Shown here: in pieces, positions 12,663 to 32,000 of the stretch
Layout: every line of letters starts with the position of its first letter
Numbering within the stretch: the first letter of the stretch is position 1
From: Candidatus Saccharimonadota bacterium
Lineage (GTDB): Archaea > Nanohalarchaeota > Nanosalinia > Nanosalinales > Nanosalinaceae
Assembly: GCA_001761425.1 (NCBI GenBank)
Contig: CP012986.1
Location: forward strand, 390,001-422,000
Direction: 5' to 3'
DNA: 32,000 nucleotides
Program-made: the position numbers and the translations under genes
The notes under the pieces: model-generated
Databases searched by the model: none
What the model was told of the DNA's origin: nothing
Seen by the model: only the letters and a program-made list of their open reading frames with translations

Positions 12663-14144
12663 TTATACTTTGAGGCCTAGGTAGTTGTTTTTTGGAGGGT
12701 TTTCTCCTTTGGAGACCTGTTTTTGTTCTTTTTCTGCTTTTCTTCTTTTTTCGTCTATCTCCTGTTTTAGGGCCTTGATGTTGGGGAGTTTGGTAGCTTC
12801 TTTGGCCAGTCTTCTTTCTATTTTCTGTTCCAGTCTTCTCTCTTTTTCGTACTGGTCTTCTTCCCATTCTTCTCTTTTGATTTTTTGTTTTTCCTCTTTT
12901 CTGATTTCTTCTATCTCTTCTTCTATGATCTGTGCTGTGTCAAGGTATGTATCCAGGTTTCTGAACAGTTCTCTGATATTTGAAATGTTTTTCTCGTTGA
13001 AGCGTGTTTCAAGATCCTGTTTGTATCCTTTGCTCCATTTAGAGTTGTCTCTGCTTGAGAAATACTTTGTCTGCTGTTCAAGGAGTTCGTATAACTGTTT
13101 TCTGACTTCGGGATAGCCGGGGCCTTTCATATCCTGACCTGTTAGTGATTTCTCCGCTGTTCTGAGGAACTGTACTGTCTCTTTGAGCTCGGATTTTCTC
13201 GGTGCTCTGTATCTTCTCCAGTTATCATCGTATTCCTCACGGATTTTTTCTGTCAAGTCTTTCACGTTGTGGGCCTGTCTGTCCATCTGCTTCAAATAGT
13301 ATTTCAGTTTCTCTATCCTGTACTCCATCTCCTTCAGGAACTGCATCTCTTCCTCTATGTCGTCGTGAGCTTTCACAGAAATCGAGAACCGATCCATTTC
13401 CCAGACGCACTCTTTTTTCAGCCATCTGACATATTCCATGATCGATACAAGGCCTTCGGAGCAGTCCTTATCCTCTACACCTCTAACATACTTCAGATCC
13501 AGGTCTGCAGTAGCATACTGGAGTTGCTCGTTATTTCTTAACTGTGTGGCAATCCTGCACTGCTCCCTGAACTCTTCTTTCGTATAATTTCTTTCCATAA
13601 GCTCCAGGCTGTCACAGCGTATGTTATCTCTGTTCTTCAACCTGTTGACAACAGTTACAAGATCTGTAGGTATATGGACTTTCAGGAGAATGCTCTCTGA
13701 GGCCTGAGGCCTGTAATAACCCTTTTCTTCGACAACGTTCCTTGGCGCAAAGAAATTTCCAGGTTCTCTCGTATCCATTTTTTCATCGTACATCGGGTCA
13801 CGGTTCTCTTTTCCTGCTTCAAGAAACTCTTTCCATACTCTATGCGCCTCCTCGTCTGTGAGGCCTTCTTCTTGTTTTATCTTGTTCATGTACCATTCTT
13901 TCCAGGCCTCAAAAGAATTTTGACCTGTGTTGCCATTGTTGTTCGTAGGTATCAGGTAACGAGTGTTCAGGACTGATGCCAGCTTCTTGTCCTGTCCTCC
14001 AGGGTAGTTTTTCATGCTGGAGCTGTGTTCGCGTGGAAAAAAGATTTCACGTGAAGTACCCCGGTAGGCAAGGATGTAGTCATGCTCAAAAGGCCAGGTA
14101 TCTATCTCTCCCTCTGCAAACTTCTCTGCACTCCATACGCTCAT
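12663..14144 (-). CDS. Orphan protein of about 493 aa with a W/Y/K/R-rich globular part and a K/E-rich C-terminal tail
   Basis: Long open frame. I prefer the ATG at 14144 (MSVWSAEKFAEGE...) because the track extension to 14387 is S/P/R-rich and overlaps the plus-strand ORF at 14291. I recognise no family. Confidence 0.6.
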   Translation of the reverse strand: MSVWSAEKFAEGEIDTWPFEHDYILAYRGTSREIFFPREHSSSMKNYPGGQDKKLASVLNTRYLIPTNNNGNTGQNSFEAWKEWYMNKIKQEEGLTDEEAHRVWKEFLEAGKENRDPMYDEKMDTREPGNFFAPRNVVEEKGYYRPQASESILLKVHIPTDLVTVVNRLKNRDNIRCDSLELMERNYTKEEFREQCRIATQLRNNEQLQYATADLDLKYVRGVEDKDCSEGLVSIMEYVRWLKKECVWEMDRFSISVKAHDDIEEEMQFLKEMEYRIEKLKYYLKQMDRQAHNVKDLTEKIREEYDDNWRRYRAPRKSELKETVQFLRTAEKSLTGQDMKGPGYPEVRKQLYELLEQQTKYFSSRDNSKWSKGYKQDLETRFNEKNISNIRELFRNLDTYLDTAQIIEEEIEEIRKEEKQKIKREEWEEDQYEKERRLEQKIERRLAKEATKLPNIKALKQEIDEKRRKAEKEQKQVSKGENPPKNNYLGLKV

Positions 14145-14290
14145 GTAAAGGCTTTCCAGATGCTTCCTGTTAAAATTTTCCGGAGGGAATAAGGCCTGAT
14201 TATTTATAGAGAATTTTCTGAGGGATGTGGCTGAGGTATTGGATCCTGATATTTTAAATACGGCCTTCTTCACGTGTATAACTGCTGAAA

Positions 14291-14641
14291 ATGTCAGTAG
14301 AGGGGAATAATTACGGCCAGATGCTGGAGAACTCTCATCTGGAGGGTAGCGAAGATTTCTGGATAAAGGAAGTTCTTGAAGAAGCAACTGGCATCTACGG
14401 AGAAAGAAAAGGCCTTGACACCGGTCTTCATGAGGCTGAGTCGCTTTCTGAAGGATATACGGGTTATGTGCTTGAGAACCGGGGTCTTGATCGGAAAATA
14501 CTGGGTTTTGAGGTTGCTCCTGTGATTTCAGAAGAACATGGTACGGGTTTTGCTGTGAGGCCTGAGGAAGACAGTGAAGAATACGGTGATTTCAAGGATG
14601 CTATCTTTAAGGCCATTTATCGTGACGTTGAAGGCTTCTAG
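14291..14641 (+). CDS. Acidic hypothetical protein (116 aa)
   Basis: The ORF has proteome-typical acidic composition and is divergent from the orphan gene. Its stop overlaps the ribL stop (CTAG). Confidence 0.45.
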   Translation: MSVEGNNYGQMLENSHLEGSEDFWIKEVLEEATGIYGERKGLDTGLHEAESLSEGYTGYVLENRGLDRKILGFEVAPVISEEHGTGFAVRPEEDSEEYGDFKDAIFKAIYRDVEGF

Positions 14642-17190: not shown

Positions 17191-17211
17191 CCGGGTGACA
17201 ATTTGATTAAT

Positions 17212-18159
17212 ATGTCTCTTTACGCTCTTGAAAACTTGGATGAGGCGATGGAGGAGACCAAAGATCTTCTGCTTCCTTTTGACCTCATGGCCTGGACTAA
17301 AATAGCTATAATCGCATTACTGGCTAGCGGAGTAAGCCTCCCGAACCTCCCGACAATGGGTGCTCCTGGCGGAGAAGGAGACCAGGTATATACACCGGAT
17401 ACTGATTTTGAGAACACGCCTGATGTCTCTGCAGGTCTTGGAGACATACCTGTGACGGGTATGGCCACTGGGACGGTGACAGACACAGTTGCTGTTGCAG
17501 TACTTGCCTTTGCAGTGCTTTTAGCAGGATTTTTCATGTATATCTCCAGTGTATTCCAGTTCATCTTTTACCGGACTGTACTGGATAAAAAACCTGTCAT
17601 AGTAGAAAACGTTAGAAAAAATGCCTACAGAGGCCTCAGATACTTTGGATTCCAGATAGTGATCTTATTACTTGCGCTTGCAGGTCTTTTAGTACCTGCA
17701 GCTCTGATGTCTGTAGGAAATCTGGTGGCTCTTGCAGCTTTGATAGTGTTCTGGATACCTTATGTGATTGTCCTAAGTGTCTTGATGAGTCTGGTACACG
17801 ATATAGCACTTCTCAGGATGATGGAGGAAAAAGAAGGCCTTATTGAGGCCTGGAGAAATGTCTGGCCTGAGATAAAGAAGCAGTGGAGGCAGGTCTTAGC
17901 GTTCCTGTTTGTCAAGTTCTTCATTAATGCAGCGATAGGAGTAGCACTGCTTATGATAACGCTTGCGATCATTATAGGCCTGATTATTCCGTTCGGCATC
18001 CTGGGTATCCTGGCTGGTGTGGTTCATCCTGTGCTTGCGTTCCTGGTACTTGTCGCAGGGATCATCACGTTCACAGTCATCATTATCTACGTGAGGATGC
18101 CGTTCTCGGTCTATGTTTACACCTACGTCATACAGTTCTACCACGATCTCACGTCGTGA
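17212..18159 (+). CDS. Polytopic membrane protein (conserved archaeal type, function unknown)
   Basis: About 6-7 hydrophobic helices. The N-terminus MSLYALENLDEAMEETKDLLLPFDLMAWTKIAIIALL resembles a motif I recall from haloarchaeal membrane proteins of unknown function. Confidence 0.7.
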   Translation: MSLYALENLDEAMEETKDLLLPFDLMAWTKIAIIALLASGVSLPNLPTMGAPGGEGDQVYTPDTDFENTPDVSAGLGDIPVTGMATGTVTDTVAVAVLAFAVLLAGFFMYISSVFQFIFYRTVLDKKPVIVENVRKNAYRGLRYFGFQIVILLLALAGLLVPAALMSVGNLVALAALIVFWIPYVIVLSVLMSLVHDIALLRMMEEKEGLIEAWRNVWPEIKKQWRQVLAFLFVKFFINAAIGVALLMITLAIIIGLIIPFGILGILAGVVHPVLAFLVLVAGIITFTVIIIYVRMPFSVYVYTYVIQFYHDLTS

Positions 18160-22755: not shown

Positions 22756-23508
22756 TTACTTTTCGTCCGAGACTGCTCTCTCAAGCTCGTCTCTTCTCTC
22801 CTCGAATTCGTTCAGAAGACTTTGAGCCTCTTCCTCTGTATCACCGGCTTCGTCGCTCCTTCTATCAAGATCATCCATCACAGCATCCATCTCATGAGAG
22901 ATATTCCTCATTTCATGGACAAGATTTTTCACCTTCTCGAACTTGTTGACCTCGAGAAAAAGAGAGTTACCTTCAGCACTCATCTGGGAAAGTTCCTGAG
23001 TAGCAGTTGATTCATCCACATCCGACTCTTCGTACTCAACTTCTCCAGTATCCTCGATATTCTCCAGTTGATTCTCCTTCTCCCTCATCTGATGCTGGAT
23101 CTCTTCCTTCAGGCCTCTCAGACTCTCATCAAGTCCCTGATCCGAGGCCTGGCCCTGGGATTCTTTCTGAACGTGTTCTTGGACCTGCTGTTCAACATTG
23201 GAAACATCTGAATTATTTTCCTGAGGCCTCCATTCCTGCGGATCTGCGGAATCCTGCTGAGCGTTAGAATTCTCCTGGACGTCTTTTTCCTTTAAATTCT
23301 CGGGATTCTGTTCCTGGAGATTCTTCTGTTTGTCGGTGGTTTGCTGGTTCTGGGGCATGTTCTGTCCGTGGCCGAGGCCTCCGCTCTGTTTACTGGTGTT
23401 CTCGTTGTTTGAGGCCTGTTCCTGGTTGTTTTCTTTGCTTACTAGGTTCTTGATTTCTTCCATATTTTTCTCTAGCTTCTCTTTGTCACCGTTTCCTAGG
23501 TTGAACAT
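22756..23508 (-). CDS. Q/N/E-rich low-complexity acidic protein with a structured C-terminal helical region
   Basis: 250-aa ORF. The N-terminal two-thirds are compositionally biased (NQEQASNNENTSKQ...). The C-terminal part, SLFLEVNKFEKVKNLVHEMRNISHEMDAVMDDL, looks helical. Confidence 0.55.
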   Translation of the reverse strand: MFNLGNGDKEKLEKNMEEIKNLVSKENNQEQASNNENTSKQSGGLGHGQNMPQNQQTTDKQKNLQEQNPENLKEKDVQENSNAQQDSADPQEWRPQENNSDVSNVEQQVQEHVQKESQGQASDQGLDESLRGLKEEIQHQMREKENQLENIEDTGEVEYEESDVDESTATQELSQMSAEGNSLFLEVNKFEKVKNLVHEMRNISHEMDAVMDDLDRRSDEAGDTEEEAQSLLNEFEERRDELERAVSDEK

Positions 23509-25817: not shown

Positions 25818-26144
25818 CTACCTGATGAACAGGAAGTAGATCAGGGCTGCGACTAGTAAGGTGATTATAATTCCTGTGTTGATCAGTGAGATCAGAAGCT
25901 TGTTGTTTTCCTTCCAGATAATGGCTCTGTGCCTGGTCTCCTTAATTTTTCCAGGTAGTTCGTTTTTCTTCTTTACAAGTTCTTCCTTCCAGATATCGAT
26001 CCTTGTCGGAGGCTCCGGTATCTCTCTTACAGAATCCTGGTAGCAACGGGTACACTGTTCCGGAACCTTGCCGTCCTCGGCAAACTGTTCAGAATACCAC
26101 TGGTAACCGCATCTTTTACACTCTACGTTTCTGTACTCCTTCAT
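25818..26144 (-). CDS. Tail-anchored zinc-ribbon membrane protein (108 aa)
   Basis: Has an N-terminal CKRCGY...CTRC motif (CxxC-N17-CxxC) and a C-terminal hydrophobic helix LLISLINTGIIITLLVAALIYFLFI. Its start overlaps the preceding gene by 29 nt. Confidence 0.6.
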   Translation of the reverse strand: MKEYRNVECKRCGYQWYSEQFAEDGKVPEQCTRCYQDSVREIPEPPTRIDIWKEELVKKKNELPGKIKETRHRAIIWKENNKLLISLINTGIIITLLVAALIYFLFIR

Positions 26145-28341
26145 CAGTTACTCCTTTTTCCTCTCTTGCCAGCTCAAGAACAAGCTCGGAAAGCTGTTCA
26201 ACCTTGTGCATTAACTCTTTTTTCTCCTTGCTTTCCTCCTCAAGCTGGTTAATACGTTTTTCCAGTTCCTTACCGCTGTTTACATCTTTCTCAAGAGAAT
26301 TCAGGCGTTTCTCAAGTTCAGAGGCCTTTTCCTGTACACTTTTTTGATCGGATTTTTCATCTTCTTTCAGTTCCTGGAGTCCTTTCTTCAGTTCCTCAAA
26401 TTTTTTCTCGTTCTCACTGATTCTGTCCTGGATTTCTTCTGTCTCAGTGTTTCTTTCCTTTTTCGCTTTTTTGAAGTCTTCACGGAGTATTTCAAGTTTC
26501 TTGCTGTTCTGCCCTACATCGTCTCCCAGGGATTGTTCGATCTCATCCAGGTTTTCCTCAAGGCCTTTTACTTCTTCTTCAATGGAGTTGATCTTTTTGT
26601 CGTCTTCTGCTTCTTTCTGAGCTTTTTCTATCAGGTCTTCGAGTCTTTCTATGTCTTTTTCAGTAGCTGATTCGTTTTTTACCTCTTCGATCAGGTTTTC
26701 CAGTTTTTCGGTTTCTTCTAGGGTGGCTGTTTCCTCCTGGAACTTTTCGAGGCCTTGTTCTAACTCTTCAAGCTCTTTTCTCTTGGCTGCAGTGTTTTTT
26801 AGTTCTGAGAAGGCTTTTTTGTCGGCTGTGTGGTGTCCGAGTTCTCTTATTTTTTGTTCGAGGTCTTTCAGTTCTTCTTTGTCTCCTGCTTCTTCTTTGA
26901 CTTTCTCTATTTCTTCACGTAGTTCCTCGTCTTCTTTTTCGTCTTCCAGGTTTTCTATTTTTTCCTGGATTTCGCTGATCTGTTTCTGGAGTTTGCTGCT
27001 TTTGGCTTCCTGATATGTTTTTACTATGCTTTTGATGTTTTCCCGGTCTTTGATCTGGTCTTCAAGGCCTTCGATCCTTTCTTTAAGTTTCTCGGTTTTT
27101 TCCAGGAGTTCGCTGTCTTCTTCCTCTGATTTGTTTTCTACATTCTGGACTCTGTCTTTCAGGCTCTGTATCTTTTTTTCGTTTTCCGGTACAGTGTCGA
27201 TTTCTTCTTCTCTGGAGTTTACCTCGGTTTTGAGGCCTTCTACGGTTTCTTCCAGTTCTTTGACATCCGCGAGTTCTTCCCTTATTTTTTCGTCGAATTT
27301 TTCGCCTGTGATGAGGCCTTCTATATTTTTTTCTTCGTCGTCTATTACCTCTTCGAGTTTGCTGTCTATGTTGTTTTCGTCCAGTTTGTCGTCTATGTCC
27401 AGTTTTACCTGGTCTATGTCTTTTATCTGGTCTTCAAGCATTTCTTCGTGTTGCTCGGTTTTCTGTTTGACAGAGTCGAGTTCTGGGAGTCTTTCCTCCA
27501 GTTCGCCGAACATTGATTCGACTTTTGATTCTTTTTCGTTTACTTCGCGTTTTAGTTGTTCGACGCGGTCCATTTTTTCCTGGAGGGATTTGTGCATCTC
27601 CGCCAGGTTGTCGAAGTCGTCTATCTGCTGGAGATCGTCCTCCATGTCGTCTACGGTGTCCTGTAGGTTGTCAAGAAGTTCCTTGTTCTGTTCTGACTGG
27701 CCTTTTATCTGGTCTACGTTGCCTTTGATTTTTTCAAAGCGTTTGTTGATTTTTTCAGGTTCCATGTCCTCGTAGATGTCTTCTATCTTCTTGTAGCCCT
27801 GTTTGATGTTATCTACTTCTTTTTCCTGTTCTAGAACCATGGAACGGACTTCGCCGATTTTTTCAGAAAGATTGCTCAGGCGTTGGTTAACCTGGTCTTT
27901 GAAACTGTCGACAGATTCGAAACGGCCTTCCAGTTTCTCTGTTTTCTGCATGAGGTCCTGGAGGTTGATCTCGTCTTCTTTTTCCTCTTCGTCCTGATGT
28001 TCTTCTGGATCATAATCTATGTTTTGGTCTTCACGGGCGATCGCGCCGACTGTTTCAGGTTCGTCGTCTTCACTTTCTTCCTCACTGTTTTCTTCTGAGG
28101 CCTCTGCTGCTTGTTCTTCCTTTTTCTCTTTCTCGTCTTTGTTTTCCTCCTGTTTCTCAGGTTTTTCTTGGTTGTCTTCAGTGTTTTCTTCAGGTTCTTC
28201 CTCTTTTGAGGCCTTTTCTTCTTCCTCTTCAGTATTTTCGTTTTCTTGCGACTGTTCTTTCAGTTCTTCTACCTGCTGGTTTACTTCTTCTTCCACATCC
28301 TGGTCTTCTTCGTCGCCTTTGATTTTGTCGAGGACTCCCAT
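26116..28341 (-). CDS. 741-aa hyper-acidic E/K/D-rich coiled-coil protein
   Basis: Uninterrupted ORF. It has a low-complexity acidic N-terminus of about 120 aa, then about 600 aa of heptad-like E/K/L/I repeats, with no hydrophobic segment. Confidence 0.75.
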   Translation of the reverse strand: MGVLDKIKGDEEDQDVEEEVNQQVEELKEQSQENENTEEEEEKASKEEEPEENTEDNQEKPEKQEENKDEKEKKEEQAAEASEENSEEESEDDEPETVGAIAREDQNIDYDPEEHQDEEEKEDEINLQDLMQKTEKLEGRFESVDSFKDQVNQRLSNLSEKIGEVRSMVLEQEKEVDNIKQGYKKIEDIYEDMEPEKINKRFEKIKGNVDQIKGQSEQNKELLDNLQDTVDDMEDDLQQIDDFDNLAEMHKSLQEKMDRVEQLKREVNEKESKVESMFGELEERLPELDSVKQKTEQHEEMLEDQIKDIDQVKLDIDDKLDENNIDSKLEEVIDDEEKNIEGLITGEKFDEKIREELADVKELEETVEGLKTEVNSREEEIDTVPENEKKIQSLKDRVQNVENKSEEEDSELLEKTEKLKERIEGLEDQIKDRENIKSIVKTYQEAKSSKLQKQISEIQEKIENLEDEKEDEELREEIEKVKEEAGDKEELKDLEQKIRELGHHTADKKAFSELKNTAAKRKELEELEQGLEKFQEETATLEETEKLENLIEEVKNESATEKDIERLEDLIEKAQKEAEDDKKINSIEEEVKGLEENLDEIEQSLGDDVGQNSKKLEILREDFKKAKKERNTETEEIQDRISENEKKFEELKKGLQELKEDEKSDQKSVQEKASELEKRLNSLEKDVNSGKELEKRINQLEEESKEKKELMHKVEQLSELVLELAREEKGVTDEGVQKRRV

Positions 28342-28375
28342 TGGTTATACACTGTTTATTTGACTTTGCCGGTAT

Positions 28376-29460
28376 TTAAGACATGTCCATCTCGTCTTTG
28401 AGGCTGTCGATGTACATGTTTGCCATTTTGAATCTTCCTTCTTTGAGTTTGTCGGATGCGAGCTGTAGTTCCAGTTTTTTGTCACGGACTTCCTGGCCTT
28501 CTTCGTCTCTTCTGTCAAGCTCTTCTCTGATTTTGTCGAGTTTTTTTGATAGCCTGTGGTATTTTTCCATTTCTTGGTCTGGTATTTTGTGTGGGTTGTG
28601 GTATGTTGGTCTGAAGTCTACGAACCATGGTTCACCTTCGTTGTAGTTTGAGTTCTGGATCATTCCTGTTCCGATGTCTTCGCTTGAGATTCTTTTTGCG
28701 AACTGTTCGCCGTATTTTTTCTCGATTCTTTCGATATCTTCCATGGATTTGGTTTGCATCTGTATTTCTGTCATGATGTTTCCGGAGATTGCTTGTTTGA
28801 AGTCTGCTGTGACTTGGGAGCACATCATTAAGCCGATACCCCATTTACGGAACTCGCGGGCGCCTCTTTCGAGAGCGTGGTATCCTCCTTGTCCTCCGTA
28901 TTTTTCCAGGAGTCTGTGGACTTCGTCGAATATTACGAGCATTTCAAGTGTGCCGCTTTCCTCCCACTCAATTTCGAAGATCTGGTCGATGATCTCTCTG
29001 ACTGCCTCGTCGAACTGTTCCGTGGTCAACTGGTTCAGTGTGAATACTGTGATTTCTCCAGGCTGTTTCAACTGCTGGAAGTCAATGTCAGGGTTCTCAG
29101 AGCTGACCTCTTTGATAATACCTGGGTAAGGATGCTCCTCTGTCTCCGGGTCCATGTCAAACCTGTCATAATGCTCTTCCAGGTTTTCATCCTTCAGCTC
29201 CTTCACGAATCCGGTCCACTGGGCAGTAGGGTCGAACACAACAACAGGTATGTCATTCTCCAGGGCCTCTTCAGCCACTACATTCGCGGTCACAGATTTA
29301 CCTGATCCTGTTGAACCGGCCACAATAGCATGTGTGGTCAGATCCTTGGGGTCTATGAAGGCCTCTTTCTCTGTCTCTGCGATTTTTCCAACCTCGAAGA
29401 ACCTGTTGTCGTCTCCGCCGGGAAGCTTGCTGTAGTCTACAGGGAATACATACCGTGATT
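28376..29460 (-). repeat. Copy 1 of a direct repeat of about 1.08 kb (the ATPase-encoding 3' portion of paralog A)
   Basis: Shares long identical runs with 30250-31330, for example TTCCATGGATTTGGTTTGCATCTGTATTTCTGTCATGATGTTTCCGGAGATTGCTTGTTTGAAGTCTGCTGTGACTTG, which is present in both copies. Confidence 0.85.
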
Positions 29461-30253
29461 CTTCTTGTTTGTGCTCCTGGTACCATCTTTGAGTGTAGAA
29501 ACCTCCTCCGATTATGATAGCTCCTACTATGGAGAATAATGCTACTTTGATCCTTCTTGCGTTCCAGAAAGGATTTGTAGCTCTGAAAGTGTCCGTAGCT
29601 GTCAGTGTACGGTTGTTCACAGTTAACTGTCCCTGGATGTAATACTCTCCGAGGGGAAGTTCTTCTAGAGGATCTATGTCATAGGTGAAAGATCCAAAAT
29701 TCGAGAAAGAGATATTTCTGGTTGTCTTGTATATTCTGTTGCCGGAGACAGCATCACGGACACCGTAGATTATTTCACCGGTCCTGTTCCTGGTTTCACT
29801 TGATGAAACGACGGTTAAAGTGCTCATAACTCCTTTAGGCCTCATTGTGTCGGCGGTTGTCTGGATGTCAAGTCTTAGATCTGATTGGCTTCTCCTCACA
29901 ACTCTCAGGCCTGCTGGTATGCTTTTTTCCTGGCCTCCGCCGCTGACAATTATGTTTCCGACTTTGAGGCCTTCGCTTATTTCTGTGGCGTTGATTGTGA
30001 TCCTGGCTTCTCCTGATTCTTTCGGTTCGACTGTGATTTCTTCCTGTACGTCTATGATAGATTGGAGGTCTTCATCGGGCTGTATTGTGTAGGTGGTGGT
30101 CTGGTTGCCTGTGTTTCTGATATCGGCAGTGTATATCTGGGTATCTCCTTTGAAGATCACGCTCAGTGATGGTATGTCGCTGTTGACGCTGAGGCCTGCA
30201 CCTGAGCTTGCAAGCAGTAGTAAGAGGCCTGTGATCACTATTTTCTTTTTCAT
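28376..30253 (-). CDS. Bitopic membrane protein: signal peptide, beta-rich ectodomain, TM helix, cytoplasmic HerA/FtsK-superfamily (DUF87-like) P-loop ATPase and C-terminal coiled coil (paralog A)
   Basis: N-terminus MKKKIVITGLLLLLASSGAGLSV; TM helix VALFSIVGAIIIGGGFY; Walker A AGSTGSGKSVT; Walker B LVIFDEVHRLL; and REFRKWGIGLMMCSQVTADF, which resembles the HerA R-K-x-G-hydrophobic-SQ motif. Confidence 0.8.
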   Translation of the reverse strand: MKKKIVITGLLLLLASSGAGLSVNSDIPSLSVIFKGDTQIYTADIRNTGNQTTTYTIQPDEDLQSIIDVQEEITVEPKESGEARITINATEISEGLKVGNIIVSGGGQEKSIPAGLRVVRRSQSDLRLDIQTTADTMRPKGVMSTLTVVSSSETRNRTGEIIYGVRDAVSGNRIYKTTRNISFSNFGSFTYDIDPLEELPLGEYYIQGQLTVNNRTLTATDTFRATNPFWNARRIKVALFSIVGAIIIGGGFYTQRWYQEHKQEESRYVFPVDYSKLPGGDDNRFFEVGKIAETEKEAFIDPKDLTTHAIVAGSTGSGKSVTANVVAEEALENDIPVVVFDPTAQWTGFVKELKDENLEEHYDRFDMDPETEEHPYPGIIKEVSSENPDIDFQQLKQPGEITVFTLNQLTTEQFDEAVREIIDQIFEIEWEESGTLEMLVIFDEVHRLLEKYGGQGGYHALERGAREFRKWGIGLMMCSQVTADFKQAISGNIMTEIQMQTKSMEDIERIEKKYGEQFAKRISSEDIGTGMIQNSNYNEGEPWFVDFRPTYHNPHKIPDQEMEKYHRLSKKLDKIREELDRRDEEGQEVRDKKLELQLASDKLKEGRFKMANMYIDSLKDEMDMS

Positions 30254-31330
30254 TTTATATCCATCTCGTCTTTGAGGCTGTCGATGTACATGTTTGCCAT
30301 TTTGAATCTTCCTTCCTTGAGTTTGTTCTCCGCGAGCTGAAGTTCTAGGTCTTTGTCCCTTGTGTCCTGTCCCTGTTCTTCTCTTCTCTTGAGTTCCTGT
30401 TTGAGTTTGTCAACTTCTTCTGAGAGGTTGTGGTATTTTTCCATTTCTTCGTCTGGTATTTTGTGTGGGTTGTGGTATGTAGGCCTGAAATCTACGAACC
30501 ATGGCTCTCCGTCGTTGTAGTTTGAGTTCTGGATCATTCCTGTTCCTACGTCTTCGCTTGAGATTCTCTTGGCGAATTCCTGGCCGTATTTTTTCTCTAC
30601 ACGGTTTATGTCTTCCATGGATTTGGTTTGCATCTGTATTTCTGTCATGATGTTTCCGGAGATTGCTTGTTTGAAGTCTGCTGTGACTTGTGATGCCATC
30701 ATTAGGCCTATGCCCCATTTTCTGAATTCTCTTGCTCCTTTTTCGAGTGCTTCGTATCCTCCTTGTCCTCCGTATTCTTCTAGGAGTCTGTGGACTTCGT
30801 CGAATACGATTAGCATCTCTAGGTCTGGGCTTTCTTCCCATTCTTTGTCGAAGATTTGATCGATTATGTTTCTTACTGCTCCGTCGAATTCTTCTGTCGT
30901 TAACTGGTTTAGTGTGAATACTGTGATTTCTCCGTCGTTCTGAAGGTCTTCGAAGTTGATTTCAGGGTTTTCTGAGCTGATTTCCTTGATGACGCCTCTG
31001 TATGGATGTGCGTCTTCCTGTGCGTCCATTTCGAACCTGTCGTAGTGTTTCTCCAGGTCATCGTCCTTGAGTTCTTTCACGAATCCTGTCCACTGTGCTG
31101 TTGGGTCGAAGACGATGACCGGTACATCATTTTCTAGAGCTTCCTCTGCGATGACGTTGGCTGTTACAGATTTACCTGATCCTGTGGATCCTGACACGAT
31201 TGCGTGTGTTGTGAGGTCGCTTGGATCGATGAATGCATCTTTCTCTGTCTCTGCGATCTTTCCGACCCAGTAGTTGTCTTCTTCCTCCGGTGGAAGCCTG
31301 TCGTAGTCCACTGGGAAGACATAGCGTGCC
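30250..31330 (-). repeat. Copy 2 of the direct repeat of about 1.08 kb (the ATPase-encoding 3' portion of paralog B)
   Basis: See copy 1. Similarity stops near the codons for RYVFPVDY, just inside the TM helix. Confidence 0.85.
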
Positions 31331-32000
31331 TCTTCCTCCTTCCTGATCCAGTAGTACTGGTAGCCTTTCCAGCCGACGATACTGATCAGGATTACAGCAA
31401 GTATCAGGATCGTTGCCCTGGTCTTGAACGGGGTCCAGAACCTTTCCTCGATTACTACCGTTGCCGAATCAACTACTGTCTGGTTCTTAGCGTCCGCCAC
31501 CGTTTGAATGTAATAGCTGCCTGAAGGGATCTCCTGTGTTGAAAGCTCTCTCTGCATGGAAGTGGCTTCTTCTATACTGACAGAATCATTCAGTTCTCTT
31601 ATCACCTTGTCAGTATCGCTCTCCCTGAAGTAATGTGTGAAGTTTATCTCTACAGGAGTTTCCATAGTGATCTGGCTCACACGGGTTTCAAAGCTGAAGT
31701 TAGAGCCAGGCTCTACATTCTTCGTAAGTGACTTCACGTTTAGATCGAAGCCATCTATACCTTCTCTAGCCACAAGGATCGACTGCGAACTGTTCACGGT
31801 GGTATTGCCGTACTCGGCTACAATCTGGCCTGAATACGTCTTGATCTCTGCATCTTCAGGGATAACAGCCCTTAACTGGGTTATAACTGTCGAGTTAGCC
31901 GACACATTGATTTCAGTGTTATCAGGTCCAAGGAGCTCACTTATCTCGCCTTGGATCGACATATCAAGTTCTATACTTTCCTCCCTGTTGTTATCTATCT
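30250..32000 (-). CDS. Paralog B of the membrane-anchored HerA/FtsK-like ATPase; the frame is open to the window end, so the N-terminus probably lies beyond 32000
   Basis: Same architecture: TM helix ATILILAVILISIVGW, then GSTGSGKSVT, then IVFDEVHRLL. There is no stop between the ATG at 31962 and position 32000. Its TGA overlaps the paralog A ATG (ATGA). Confidence 0.8.
   Translation of the reverse strand, partial: IDNNREESIELDMSIQGEISELLGPDNTEINVSANSTVITQLRAVIPEDAEIKTYSGQIVAEYGNTTVNSSQSILVAREGIDGFDLNVKSLTKNVEPGSNFSFETRVSQITMETPVEINFTHYFRESDTDKVIRELNDSVSIEEATSMQRELSTQEIPSGSYYIQTVADAKNQTVVDSATVVIEERFWTPFKTRATILILAVILISIVGWKGYQYYWIRKEEEARYVFPVDYDRLPPEEEDNYWVGKIAETEKDAFIDPSDLTTHAIVSGSTGSGKSVTANVIAEEALENDVPVIVFDPTAQWTGFVKELKDDDLEKHYDRFEMDAQEDAHPYRGVIKEISSENPEINFEDLQNDGEITVFTLNQLTTEEFDGAVRNIIDQIFDKEWEESPDLEMLIVFDEVHRLLEEYGGQGGYEALEKGAREFRKWGIGLMMASQVTADFKQAISGNIMTEIQMQTKSMEDINRVEKKYGQEFAKRISSEDVGTGMIQNSNYNDGEPWFVDFRPTYHNPHKIPDEEMEKYHNLSEEVDKLKQELKRREEQGQDTRDKDLELQLAENKLKEGRFKMANMYIDSLKDEMDIK

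Follow-up and report, generated by a model that had tools for sequence, protein, structure and literature searches.

The 3' end of the SPEARE operon of Nanohaloarchaea archaeon SG9: membrane-anchored HerA-clade ATPases with a helical acidic partner and a zinc-ribbon protein

The 3' end of the SG9 SPEARE operon

The 32,000-nucleotide (nt) stretch of contig CP012986.1 analyzed here (positions 390,001 to 422,000, hereafter the window) ends in a cluster of four genes, all co-directional on the minus strand in the open reading frame (ORF) listing of the window (Table 1). In the order in which they are read, they encode the C-terminus of a giant SPEARE protein (paralog B), a short membrane-anchored ATPase of the HerA clade (paralog A), a helical acidic protein, and a small zinc-ribbon protein. 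The tight packing that had been described for them was checked on the sequence and agrees in every detail: the stop codon of the giant gene and the start codon of A share the ATGA at 30250-30253, a gap of 34 nt (28342-28375) separates A from the helical gene, and the helical and zinc-ribbon genes overlap by 29 nt (26116-26144). These four genes close the SPEARE operon of Nanohaloarchaea archaeon SG9 at its 3' end; the locus has already been published. New here are the assignment of the ATPases to the HerA clade, a family of helical partner proteins that extends across DPANN archaea, the zinc-ribbon accessory protein, and a co-evolving pair of paralogs.

Table 1. Features of the four-gene cluster, with positions numbered along the window
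Feature	Position	Strand	Evidence or detail
3' end (last 583 codons) of the giant SPEARE gene, paralog B	30250..32000	-	frame open to the window edge
Single transmembrane helix of the giant, between ectodomain and cytoplasmic ATPase	31351..31431	-	hydropathy scan
Catalytic motifs of the giant ATPase	30688..31191	-	Walker A 31168-31191; Walker B 30790-30804; REFRKWG..SQ 30688-30732
Short paralog A, AQV86_02330, 625 aa, membrane-anchored HerA-clade ATPase	28376..30253	-	
Signal-like N-terminal segment of A	30182-30253	-	
Ectodomain of A, two Ig-like beta-sandwich domains	29570..30181	-	AlphaFold2, Foldseek, weak Pfam
Transmembrane helix of A, residues 232-265	29459..29560	-	hydropathy scan, AlphaFold2
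P-loop ATPase domain of A, residues 286-555	28589..29398	-	Pfam, PDB profile search, AlphaFold2
Catalytic motifs of A		-	Walker A 29294-29317; Walker B 28916-28930; REFRKWG..SQ 28814-28858
C-terminal three-helix tail of A, residues 559-621	28379..28588	-	family-wide motif KLKEG.F.M...YI..L at 28400-28450
Helical acidic partner protein, 741 aa	26116..28341	-	
Parts of the helical protein		-	acidic head 27970-28341; conserved core 27322-27969; signature SEKIGEVRS 27841-27867
Tail-anchored zinc-ribbon protein, 108 aa, pI 8.9	25818..26144	-	
Parts of the zinc-ribbon protein		-	ribbon 26040-26120; C-terminal transmembrane helix 25821-25904

Protein A is 100% identical to the hypothetical protein AQV86_02330 of Nanohaloarchaea archaeon SG9 and 63 to 64% identical to the ATPases encoded beside SVXNc_0300 and BNXNv_0298, which makes it a SPEARE protein by identity and homology with named members. 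In Hamm et al. 2019 (PMC6642349), SPEARE proteins are described in the SG9 genome in versions of 8,553, 4,057, 3,315, and 655 amino acids (aa), AQV86_02330 and AOV94740.1 are cited, and a SPEARE protein of Nanohaloarchaeum antarcticus is given as detected by proteomics. The accession of the 8,553-aa SG9 version named there, AOV94740.1, is adjacent to AOV94739.1, which is AQV86_02330. In the same paper, the legend to Fig. 7 pairs locus tags, accessions, and lengths inconsistently: AQV86_02330 appears as a protein of 3,315 aa versus 625 aa in the database, and the 8,553-aa protein is labeled AQV86_04780 yet carries the accession AOV94740.1, while the supplement pairs AQV86_04780 with AOV95205.1. 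The layout reported by Reva et al. 2023 (PMC10266531) consists of a signal peptide, ~75 immunoglobulin (Ig)-like domains, a transmembrane (TM) helix, a "VirB4/TraG-like" ATPase, and a terminal coiled coil, and the gene directly downstream of the giant was found to encode a second ATPase. The original prediction had held that no known member of the superfamily carries an Ig-like ectodomain fused through one TM helix; this does not hold, given that SPEARE proteins were described in this very genome (PMC6642349) and that both the layout and the adjacent second ATPase are in print (PMC10266531). The tags of the helical partner and the zinc-ribbon protein (SVXNc_0297/0298 and BNXNv_0295/0296) are absent from the main text of Reva et al. 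2023 (PMC10266531), and neither protein is mentioned in the available passages of Hamm et al. 2019 (PMC6642349).

The frame of B runs without a stop codon from its first ATG to the window edge, so that the window cuts the gene. Upstream of A, the SG9 contig carries a gene of 8,573 codons that likewise ends in the ATGA overlap and runs on for ~24 kb past the window edge. B is therefore not a paralog of ~600 aa with a signal peptide and an ectodomain of ~230 aa like that of A, as had been read from the window, but the last 583 residues of the giant SPEARE protein of SG9, with an ectodomain of ~8,200 aa. The case is a caution that a window edge can make a giant gene look like an ordinary paralog. 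Within the last 3,333 aa of the giant, the hydropathy scan found a single TM helix, located 367 aa from the end of the protein and followed by the Pfam domain DUF87 (1.4e-11), and the cytoplasmic part of B is 80 to 89% identical to the C-termini of other giant proteins. The giant thus shows the SPEARE layout: its adhesion region outside the cytoplasm is very long, a single TM helix lies near the C-terminus, and the cytoplasmic domain is conserved.

A (isoelectric point, pI, of 4.8) was modeled with AlphaFold2 from a 58-sequence alignment, with a mean predicted local distance difference test score (pLDDT) of 86.5. Together with hydropathy, the model confirmed the architecture predicted for this protein, namely, a hydrophobic N-terminal segment, a beta ectodomain, one TM helix, a P-loop domain, and a helical tail. 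The N-terminal segment (residues 4 to 24) is signal-like, with MKKK, a hydrophobic run, and then SSGAG. The ectodomain comprises two beta-sandwich domains (residues 21 to 119 and 126 to 225 of the model), whose matches in Foldseek are Ig/fibronectin type III-like adhesion domains (WxLIP host-binding domain, RbmA, and HYDIN-type Ig), with weak Pfam matches to FixG_C and HYDIN Ig-like. As foreseen, A and B have in common the Walker A motif GSTGSGKS, the Walker B motif FDEVH, the REFRKWGIGLMM(C/A)SQ motif, and the KLKEGRFKMANMYIDSL tail. Residues invariant in 58 diverse homologues are G313, T315, G316, G318, K319, and S320 in Walker A, D443 and E444 in Walker B, R466-E-F-R-K-W-G472 ... S479-Q480, and L603, K604, G606, and Y614 in the tail. 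Since A and B both carry all of them, with the Walker A, Walker B, and arginine-finger-type motifs intact, both ATPases look catalytically competent. A and the giant are type-I membrane proteins with an adhesin-like ectodomain, one TM helix, a cytoplasmic HerA-clade ATPase, and a helical tail.

The two halves of these proteins evolve differently. Across nanohaloarchaeal orthologues of A, identity drops from 56% to 21% in the ectodomain and lies at 87 to 75% in the cytoplasmic domain, in keeping with the variable ectodomain on a conserved motor that the original prediction described. Long and short paralogs were compared in SG9 (window positions 28376-32000) and at loci L002, L003, L004, L006, and L007. 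Within one genome they are 78 to 90% identical over the last 375 aa versus ~55% between lineages, and their C-terminal tails share lineage-specific substitutions, reaching 97% identity in a Nanohalobium metagenome-assembled genome (MAG). The membrane-proximal ectodomains of the same pairs are 16 to 22% identical. This pattern suggests gene conversion, or else selection for co-assembly or for a shared partner.

Assignment of the ATPases to the HerA clade

By profile as well as by fold, the motor falls into the HerA clade of the FtsK-HerA superfamily, a more specific placement than the superfamily to which the ATPases had been correctly referred. A matches the Pfam domains DUF87 (the HerA central domain; 3e-12) and HerA_C (2e-7), and its best NCBIfam models are CedD (9e-12) and Thermoproteota HerA (1e-9), both far under cut-off. 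When the family profile was compared with all PDB sequences, the eight best matches were all HerA or HerA-like, with 4d2i (1e-9) followed by Sir2-HerA 8wiv, 9c1m, HerA-NurA 9x1l, and YjgR; VirD4-like IcmO (0.003), FtsK (0.05), and a TrwB-type protein (0.3) came lower. HerA 4d2i was also the first ATPase match of Foldseek against the PDB (1.9e-12), with SIR2/HerA and HerA-NurA complexes among the others. A viral fold library gave a HerA-like protein of a phage as its best match and, in addition, the PH1 packaging ATPase (PH1 being a haloarchaeal virus). The best PADLOC models are likewise those of HerA. The features of a HerA-clade P-loop core are all present, i.e., Walker A, Walker B of the form hhhhDE, R-K-x-G ... 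SQ, and best similarity to HerA.

Several narrower identities were tried and rejected. A is not a canonical HerA, as the stretch from the TM helix to the P-loop is too short to hold a HAS-barrel. Nor is it a CedD orthologue, scoring 44 bits against the NF053655 cut-off of 600 and having no polytopic CedA-like neighbor. The HerA_antiphage models gave 18 to 28 bits against cut-offs of 800 to 850, and the partner proteins carry no effector domain, which sets aside the anti-phage HerA systems. A type III restriction enzyme (Res) was discarded too: the ResIII match covers only the segment from Walker A to Walker B (residues 306 to 450), there is no Helicase_C or nuclease domain, and the fold is HerA-like.

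Hamm et al. 2019 proposed a restriction-enzyme or DNA-degrading domain, and one may also think of a HerA-based defence against viruses. The ResIII matches do lie above the Pfam gathering score (27 to 34 bits versus 22.5), the PADLOC HerA and mad8 models reach 54 bits, and many HerA proteins act in defence. However, the ResIII match is far weaker than that of DUF87, and no nuclease, Sir2, or other effector domain is found in the four proteins or recurs in the neighborhoods. The locus, moreover, sits among housekeeping genes (enolase, ribosomal proteins, IF-2), and a fusion to an exported adhesin is absent from all PADLOC defence systems. We consider a restriction or defence function, which was already disfavored, very improbable.

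The published label of the short ATPase was VirB4, for which Reva et al. 2023 cited the domain PF03135 (CagE_TrbE_VirB) as leaving "little doubt" (PMC10266531). We did not detect PF03135 at an E value of <=1 in SVXNc_0299 (P0012), BNXNv_0297 (P0010), or A. A VirB4 N-terminal domain would also be topologically impossible because the N-terminus is exported. The NCBIfam models for VirB4/TraG scored far under their cut-offs (TraC, 27 bits versus 567; VirB4, 20 bits versus 325 to 590), and no VirB4 chain occurs among the PDB profile matches at an E value of <=1 or in the top 50 fold matches.

These results bear on the type IV secretion-like "straw" proposed by the same authors (PMC10266531), which combines VirB4/TraG ATPases with the giant protein as a channel that injects protein effectors into the host. 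Weak Pfam matches to TrwB_AAD_bind (E values of 4e-4 to 2e-5), AAA_10, and T4SS-DNA_transf point in this direction, as do the cytoplasmic bridges seen by electron cryotomography in the Nanohalococcus consortium (PMC11001535), and the adjacent second ATPase gene loosely resembles a VirB4 plus VirD4 pair. Against it stand the missing PF03135, in place of which the N-terminus is an exported Ig-like domain, and the missing VirB4 among profile and fold matches. In addition, no counterparts to type IV secretion system (T4SS) components VirB2, VirB3, VirB6, or VirB8 recur in the 85 non-redundant loci encoding ATPase relatives that we surveyed, and instead of a VirB4/VirD4 pair, the two ATPases are close paralogs of each other. 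A straw of the T4SS type seems to us unlikely.

Conserved partners across archaeal genomes

At least 566 loci encode relatives of the ATPase when one genome per GTDB species is considered. The best 80 of these come mostly from Aenigmatarchaeota, with Nanohaloarchaeota, Woesearchaeota, Parvarchaeota, Hydrothermarchaeum, and other bins making up the rest. In the 85 surveyed loci, the ATPase is usually the C-terminus of an ORF of 1,100 to >3,300 aa, and the only families that recur are the ATPase itself, the helical partner, the nanohaloarchaeal zinc-ribbon protein, some large secreted proteins, and one family of small TM ORFs. The gene order giant/short ATPase/helical/zinc-ribbon is kept in four nanohaloarchaeal genera in which the flanking genes differ, so the co-occurrence expected in related genomes is indeed found: besides SG9, the same order is present in Nanohalococcus occultus (9,409, 623, 512, and 108 aa), Nanohalovita (8,880, 628, 518, and 115 aa), and the Nanohalobium MAG (8,305, 625, 756, and 109 aa). 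A fifth nanohaloarchaeon (Ga0136447_1000001; L005:16511-17869) has the trio of short ATPase, helical, and zinc-ribbon genes without a giant gene directly upstream, and a gene of 9,544 codons starts 6.6 kb downstream of the trio. In a Woesearchaeota contig (L006:1-8004), a gene of 15,808 codons ending in the ATPase domain is followed by genes for a 699-aa ATPase and a 696-aa helical protein. Across DPANN, the conserved unit is the ATPase plus its helical partner, with the zinc-ribbon protein and the long/short tandem as lineage-specific additions.

The soluble helical protein is strongly biased in composition, with 57% E/K/D/R/Q, 4% G/P, a net charge of -125, a pI of 4.4, and an acidic head spanning residues 1 to 124, and it has neither a signal peptide nor a TM helix. 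It had been described as essentially one long coiled coil, which stands as far as the charged helical composition and the acidic head are concerned; a coiled coil along the whole protein is less certain, since the core models as all-helical but with low confidence (pLDDT of 54) and the global heptad periodicity is only ~2 standard deviations above that of shuffled sequences. A member of the family is found in 76 of the 85 loci, on the ATPase strand in 74 of these, and most of the nine remaining loci are contigs that end just past the ATPase gene. The distance from the ATPase stop codon to the start of the helical gene is mostly no more than a few tens of bases (range of about -29 to +320), with one small gene in between in four loci, and the helical protein ranges from 230 to 1,122 aa.

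Proteins of such composition may resemble one another by chance, and three observations argue otherwise. All matches of the family span the same core of the hidden Markov model (HMM), at positions ~125 to 340; the family also emerges from BLAST clustering in which SEG filtering and composition correction were applied; and the signature [ST][ED]x[ILVM]G[ED][ILVM]R[STA] (SEKIGEVRS at residues 159 to 167 in SG9, i.e., SE-x-IGE-x-RS) occurs in 40 ORFs, 40/40 of them family members, and in 0 of ~3,900 other ORFs. Other highly charged helical ORFs at the same loci, such as a 730-aa ORF in L071, miss the HMM. Judged by its sequences, the helical protein is a real conserved family and not a case of compositional similarity.

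The helical protein could also be a substrate that the ATPase ring exports and that builds or lines the intercellular bridge, in the way that EssC/EccC, FtsK-like ATPases anchored in the membrane in type VII secretion, export helical proteins of neighboring genes. The adjacency of its gene to that of the ATPase in 76/85 loci, the lack of a signal peptide or TM helix, the variation in length, and a conserved core near the N-terminus, a possible docking signal, are all compatible with this role. The analogy, however, is architectural only, for there is no sequence or fold similarity to WXG100 substrates of type VII secretion systems (T7SS) or to EssC, and we regard export of the helical protein as quite improbable.

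The zinc-ribbon protein has a CxxC-x18-CxxC pattern (motifs at residues 9 to 12 and 31 to 34), a conserved EIPEPPT segment, an amphipathic stretch, and a TM helix at residues 81 to 108, in agreement with the CxxC...CxxC motifs and C-terminal membrane anchor originally ascribed to it. Because this helix ends the protein, it is tail-anchored and its ribbon is cytoplasmic. The gene follows the helical gene in 9/9 nanohaloarchaeal loci in which a helical partner gene was found. The family is narrow, with only 20 clusters recovered by a HMMER search of 1.84 billion representatives, and a layout of CxxC/CxxC plus C-terminal TM helix is seen in only 11 of 2,461 small ORFs. A Parvarchaeota MAG encodes at the same position a non-homologous look-alike of 102 aa, with CxxC-x11-CxxC and a C-terminal TM helix.

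Several homologues of the zinc-ribbon protein (P0124, P0130, and P0131) are named "NAD-dependent SIR2 family protein deacetylase" in Joint Genome Institute (JGI) records. No Sir2 domain is detectable with Pfam in the 108-aa protein, and Sir2 enzymes are far longer than 108 aa. The label probably derives from the zinc ribbon alone and is most likely an annotation artefact, a curious one given the existence of Sir2-HerA pairings.

Some loci carry further genes. A family of ORFs of ~73 aa, with one TM helix and a charged helical tail (e.g., MYLFGINIPILELLVILCVVVVVYLIV...), is found on the ATPase strand in 10 loci, in one case just upstream of the large gene (L073:366-587), and may represent a further small membrane component. 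In some lineages (L023, L040, and L042; L049, L060, and L067; L007), more large exported proteins with a C-terminal TM helix follow the helical gene, in one pattern as a protein of ~1,070 aa plus a ~380-aa multi-TM protein and in another as proteins of 1,820 to 1,920 aa. In the "Methanosarcinales" MAG CAYYOI01, the complete module occurs three times, on three contigs. Relatives with a helical partner are also present in bins labeled as non-DPANN archaea, namely, Heimdallarchaeota (L045), Methanosarcinales (L021, L044, and L049), and Methanobacteriota MAGs (L077), and could be mis-binned DPANN contigs or a true presence.

The rest of the SG9 window is made up of housekeeping genes (enolase, the ribosomal proteins S2, L7Ae, S28e, and L24e, IF-2, Nre, an XPD-like helicase, SufBD, a cysteine desulfurase, and a MatE transporter). 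Two ORFs of 574 and 250 aa on the minus strand (12663-14387 and 22756-23508) have no Pfam match at an E value of <=1e-5. A gene for a DUF7544 protein (17203-18159) lies on the opposite, plus strand and abuts the XPD-like helicase gene, and a tRNA-Gly(GCC) is located at 1019-1090.

A candidate translocase at cell contacts and its known relatives

In FtsK/SpoIIIE, TraB, VirD4/TrwB, CedB/CedD, and EssC, an N-terminal membrane anchor docks a hexameric, polymer-pumping ring. By analogy, we propose that the SPEARE ATPases form a membrane-docked hexameric polymer translocase at the symbiont-host contact, a reading to which we give a probability of roughly 55%. The ATPase domains would assemble into a hexameric ring under the symbiont membrane, docked by the N-terminal TM helices, and would use ATP to pass a polymer through the central channel at the contact site. 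DNA would be the most likely polymer, on account of the affinity to HerA and Ced and of the basic zinc-ribbon protein. To our knowledge, CedB and CedD are the only TM-anchored HerA-clade proteins that have been studied genetically. Both are required for DNA import (PMC11868833, PMC11823120).

The ectodomains, that of the giant included, would bind the host surface. The short paralog would probably co-assemble with the giant and fill the ring, leaving few giant stalks per ring; such co-assembly is suggested by the ATGA overlap, which couples translation, and by cytoplasmic domains and tails that are nearly identical. The helical and zinc-ribbon proteins would serve in the cytoplasm as a scaffold or adaptor. 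Since six single TM helices are unlikely to form a DNA-sized pore, the channel would have to come from a separate component encoded outside the operon. The broader idea of a machine for cell contact, uptake, or exchange, with which the original prediction closed, is not new, as it had already been proposed as a hypothesis in the SPEARE papers.

A number of observations speak against such a translocase. The operon encodes no polytopic membrane protein equivalent to CedA, VirB6, or FtsK-N that could form the channel, and the proposed ring would contribute only six TM helices, one per subunit. A lacks the HAS-barrel: in the model, only two short strands lie between the end of the TM helix (residue 265) and the start of the DUF87 match (residue 286), so that the DNA-entry geometry of HerA need not apply. 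The match to CedD is weak. Finally, HerA-clade rings also act as scaffolds or effector activators, as seen in the Sir2-HerA and DUF4297-HerA structures, which makes a role without translocation possible.

One such role would be that of a mechanical or assembly motor for an adhesin, in which the ring anchors, tensions, retracts, clusters, or turns over the giant ectodomain and no substrate crosses the membrane; the helical protein would then be a cytoskeleton-like tether beneath the membrane and the zinc-ribbon protein its membrane anchor. This would account for an operon without a channel-forming membrane protein, for the single TM helix per subunit, and for a partner that is long, helical, and non-enzymatic. 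The basic tail-anchored protein (pI of 8.9) could bind the helical protein (net charge of -125), and the ring would share its scaffolding function with the Sir2-HerA and DUF4297-HerA complexes just mentioned. However, the strict conservation of the catalytic motifs across 58 diverse homologues speaks for a genuine motor cycle, and no FtsK-HerA member is known to work as a tether or winch. We regard a purely mechanical role as fairly unlikely.

The polymer translocase that we favor would fit into a wider picture, which we put forward only tentatively. The HerA motor and the helical partner, joined by the zinc-ribbon protein in nanohaloarchaea, could be the core of a surface translocation machine that spans DPANN and differs from T4SS, Ced, and T7SS. 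Such a machine might drive the exchange of nucleic acids or proteins through the cytoplasmic bridges seen between symbiont and host, with mixed rings of giant and short subunits setting the number of stalks per motor. DPANN archaea have tiny genomes and make neither nucleotides nor lipids, and SPEARE is the most cited candidate for the means by which they draw material from their hosts. The HerA-clade identity redirects experiments toward DNA-stimulated ATPase activity, threading assays, and comparison with Ced. The helical partner (76/85 loci, drawn from at least 566) and the nanohaloarchaeal zinc-ribbon protein define a complex of three or four proteins to reconstitute and to seek in tomograms.

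Among known systems, FtsK/SpoIIIE, Streptomyces TraB, VirD4/TrwB, and the T7SS ATPases EssC/EccC resemble the SPEARE ATPases in placing a ring-forming P-loop motor from their common superfamily behind an N-terminal membrane anchor, and they set the example for pumping polymers at a membrane. The relation in sequence is weak, as the PDB profile values for FtsK, TrwB-type proteins, and IcmO given above indicate (0.05, 0.3, and 0.003, respectively), and these membrane-anchored pumps have two to five TM helices per subunit versus one here and none bears a large extracellular adhesin.

HerA (Sulfolobus HerA 4d2i, HerA-NurA, and Sir2-HerA) is the best match for the ATPase core by profile and fold, and AREFRKWGIGL..SQ in the SPEARE ATPases aligns with AREGRKFGVGL..SQ in HerA. 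The differences are the exported ectodomain and TM helix in place of the N-terminal HAS-barrel and the partner, which is a helical acidic protein instead of NurA, Sir2, or another nuclease partner. CedB and CedD (and TedD) of the crenarchaeal Ced DNA-import system are archaeal, TM-anchored HerA-clade ATPases as well, CedD being the best NCBIfam model, and the paralogous ATPases CedB and CedD cooperate in passing DNA from cell to cell (PMC11868833, PMC11823120). The differences are that the score is 44 bits, with the cut-off at 600, that what lies between TM helix and ATPase here is not a VirB4-like N-terminal domain, that the Ced proteins have no large ectodomain, and that no homologues of CedA, CedA1, or CedA2 lie in the neighborhood.

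With SPEARE as described by Hamm et al. 2019 and Reva et al. 2023, the relation is one of identity, B being the C-terminus of the giant and A the adjacent short ATPase. The published labels (restriction endonuclease; VirB4/TraG with PF03135) were not reproduced here, but the signal peptide, adhesion domains, TM helix, conserved cytoplasmic ATPase, and helical tail all match.

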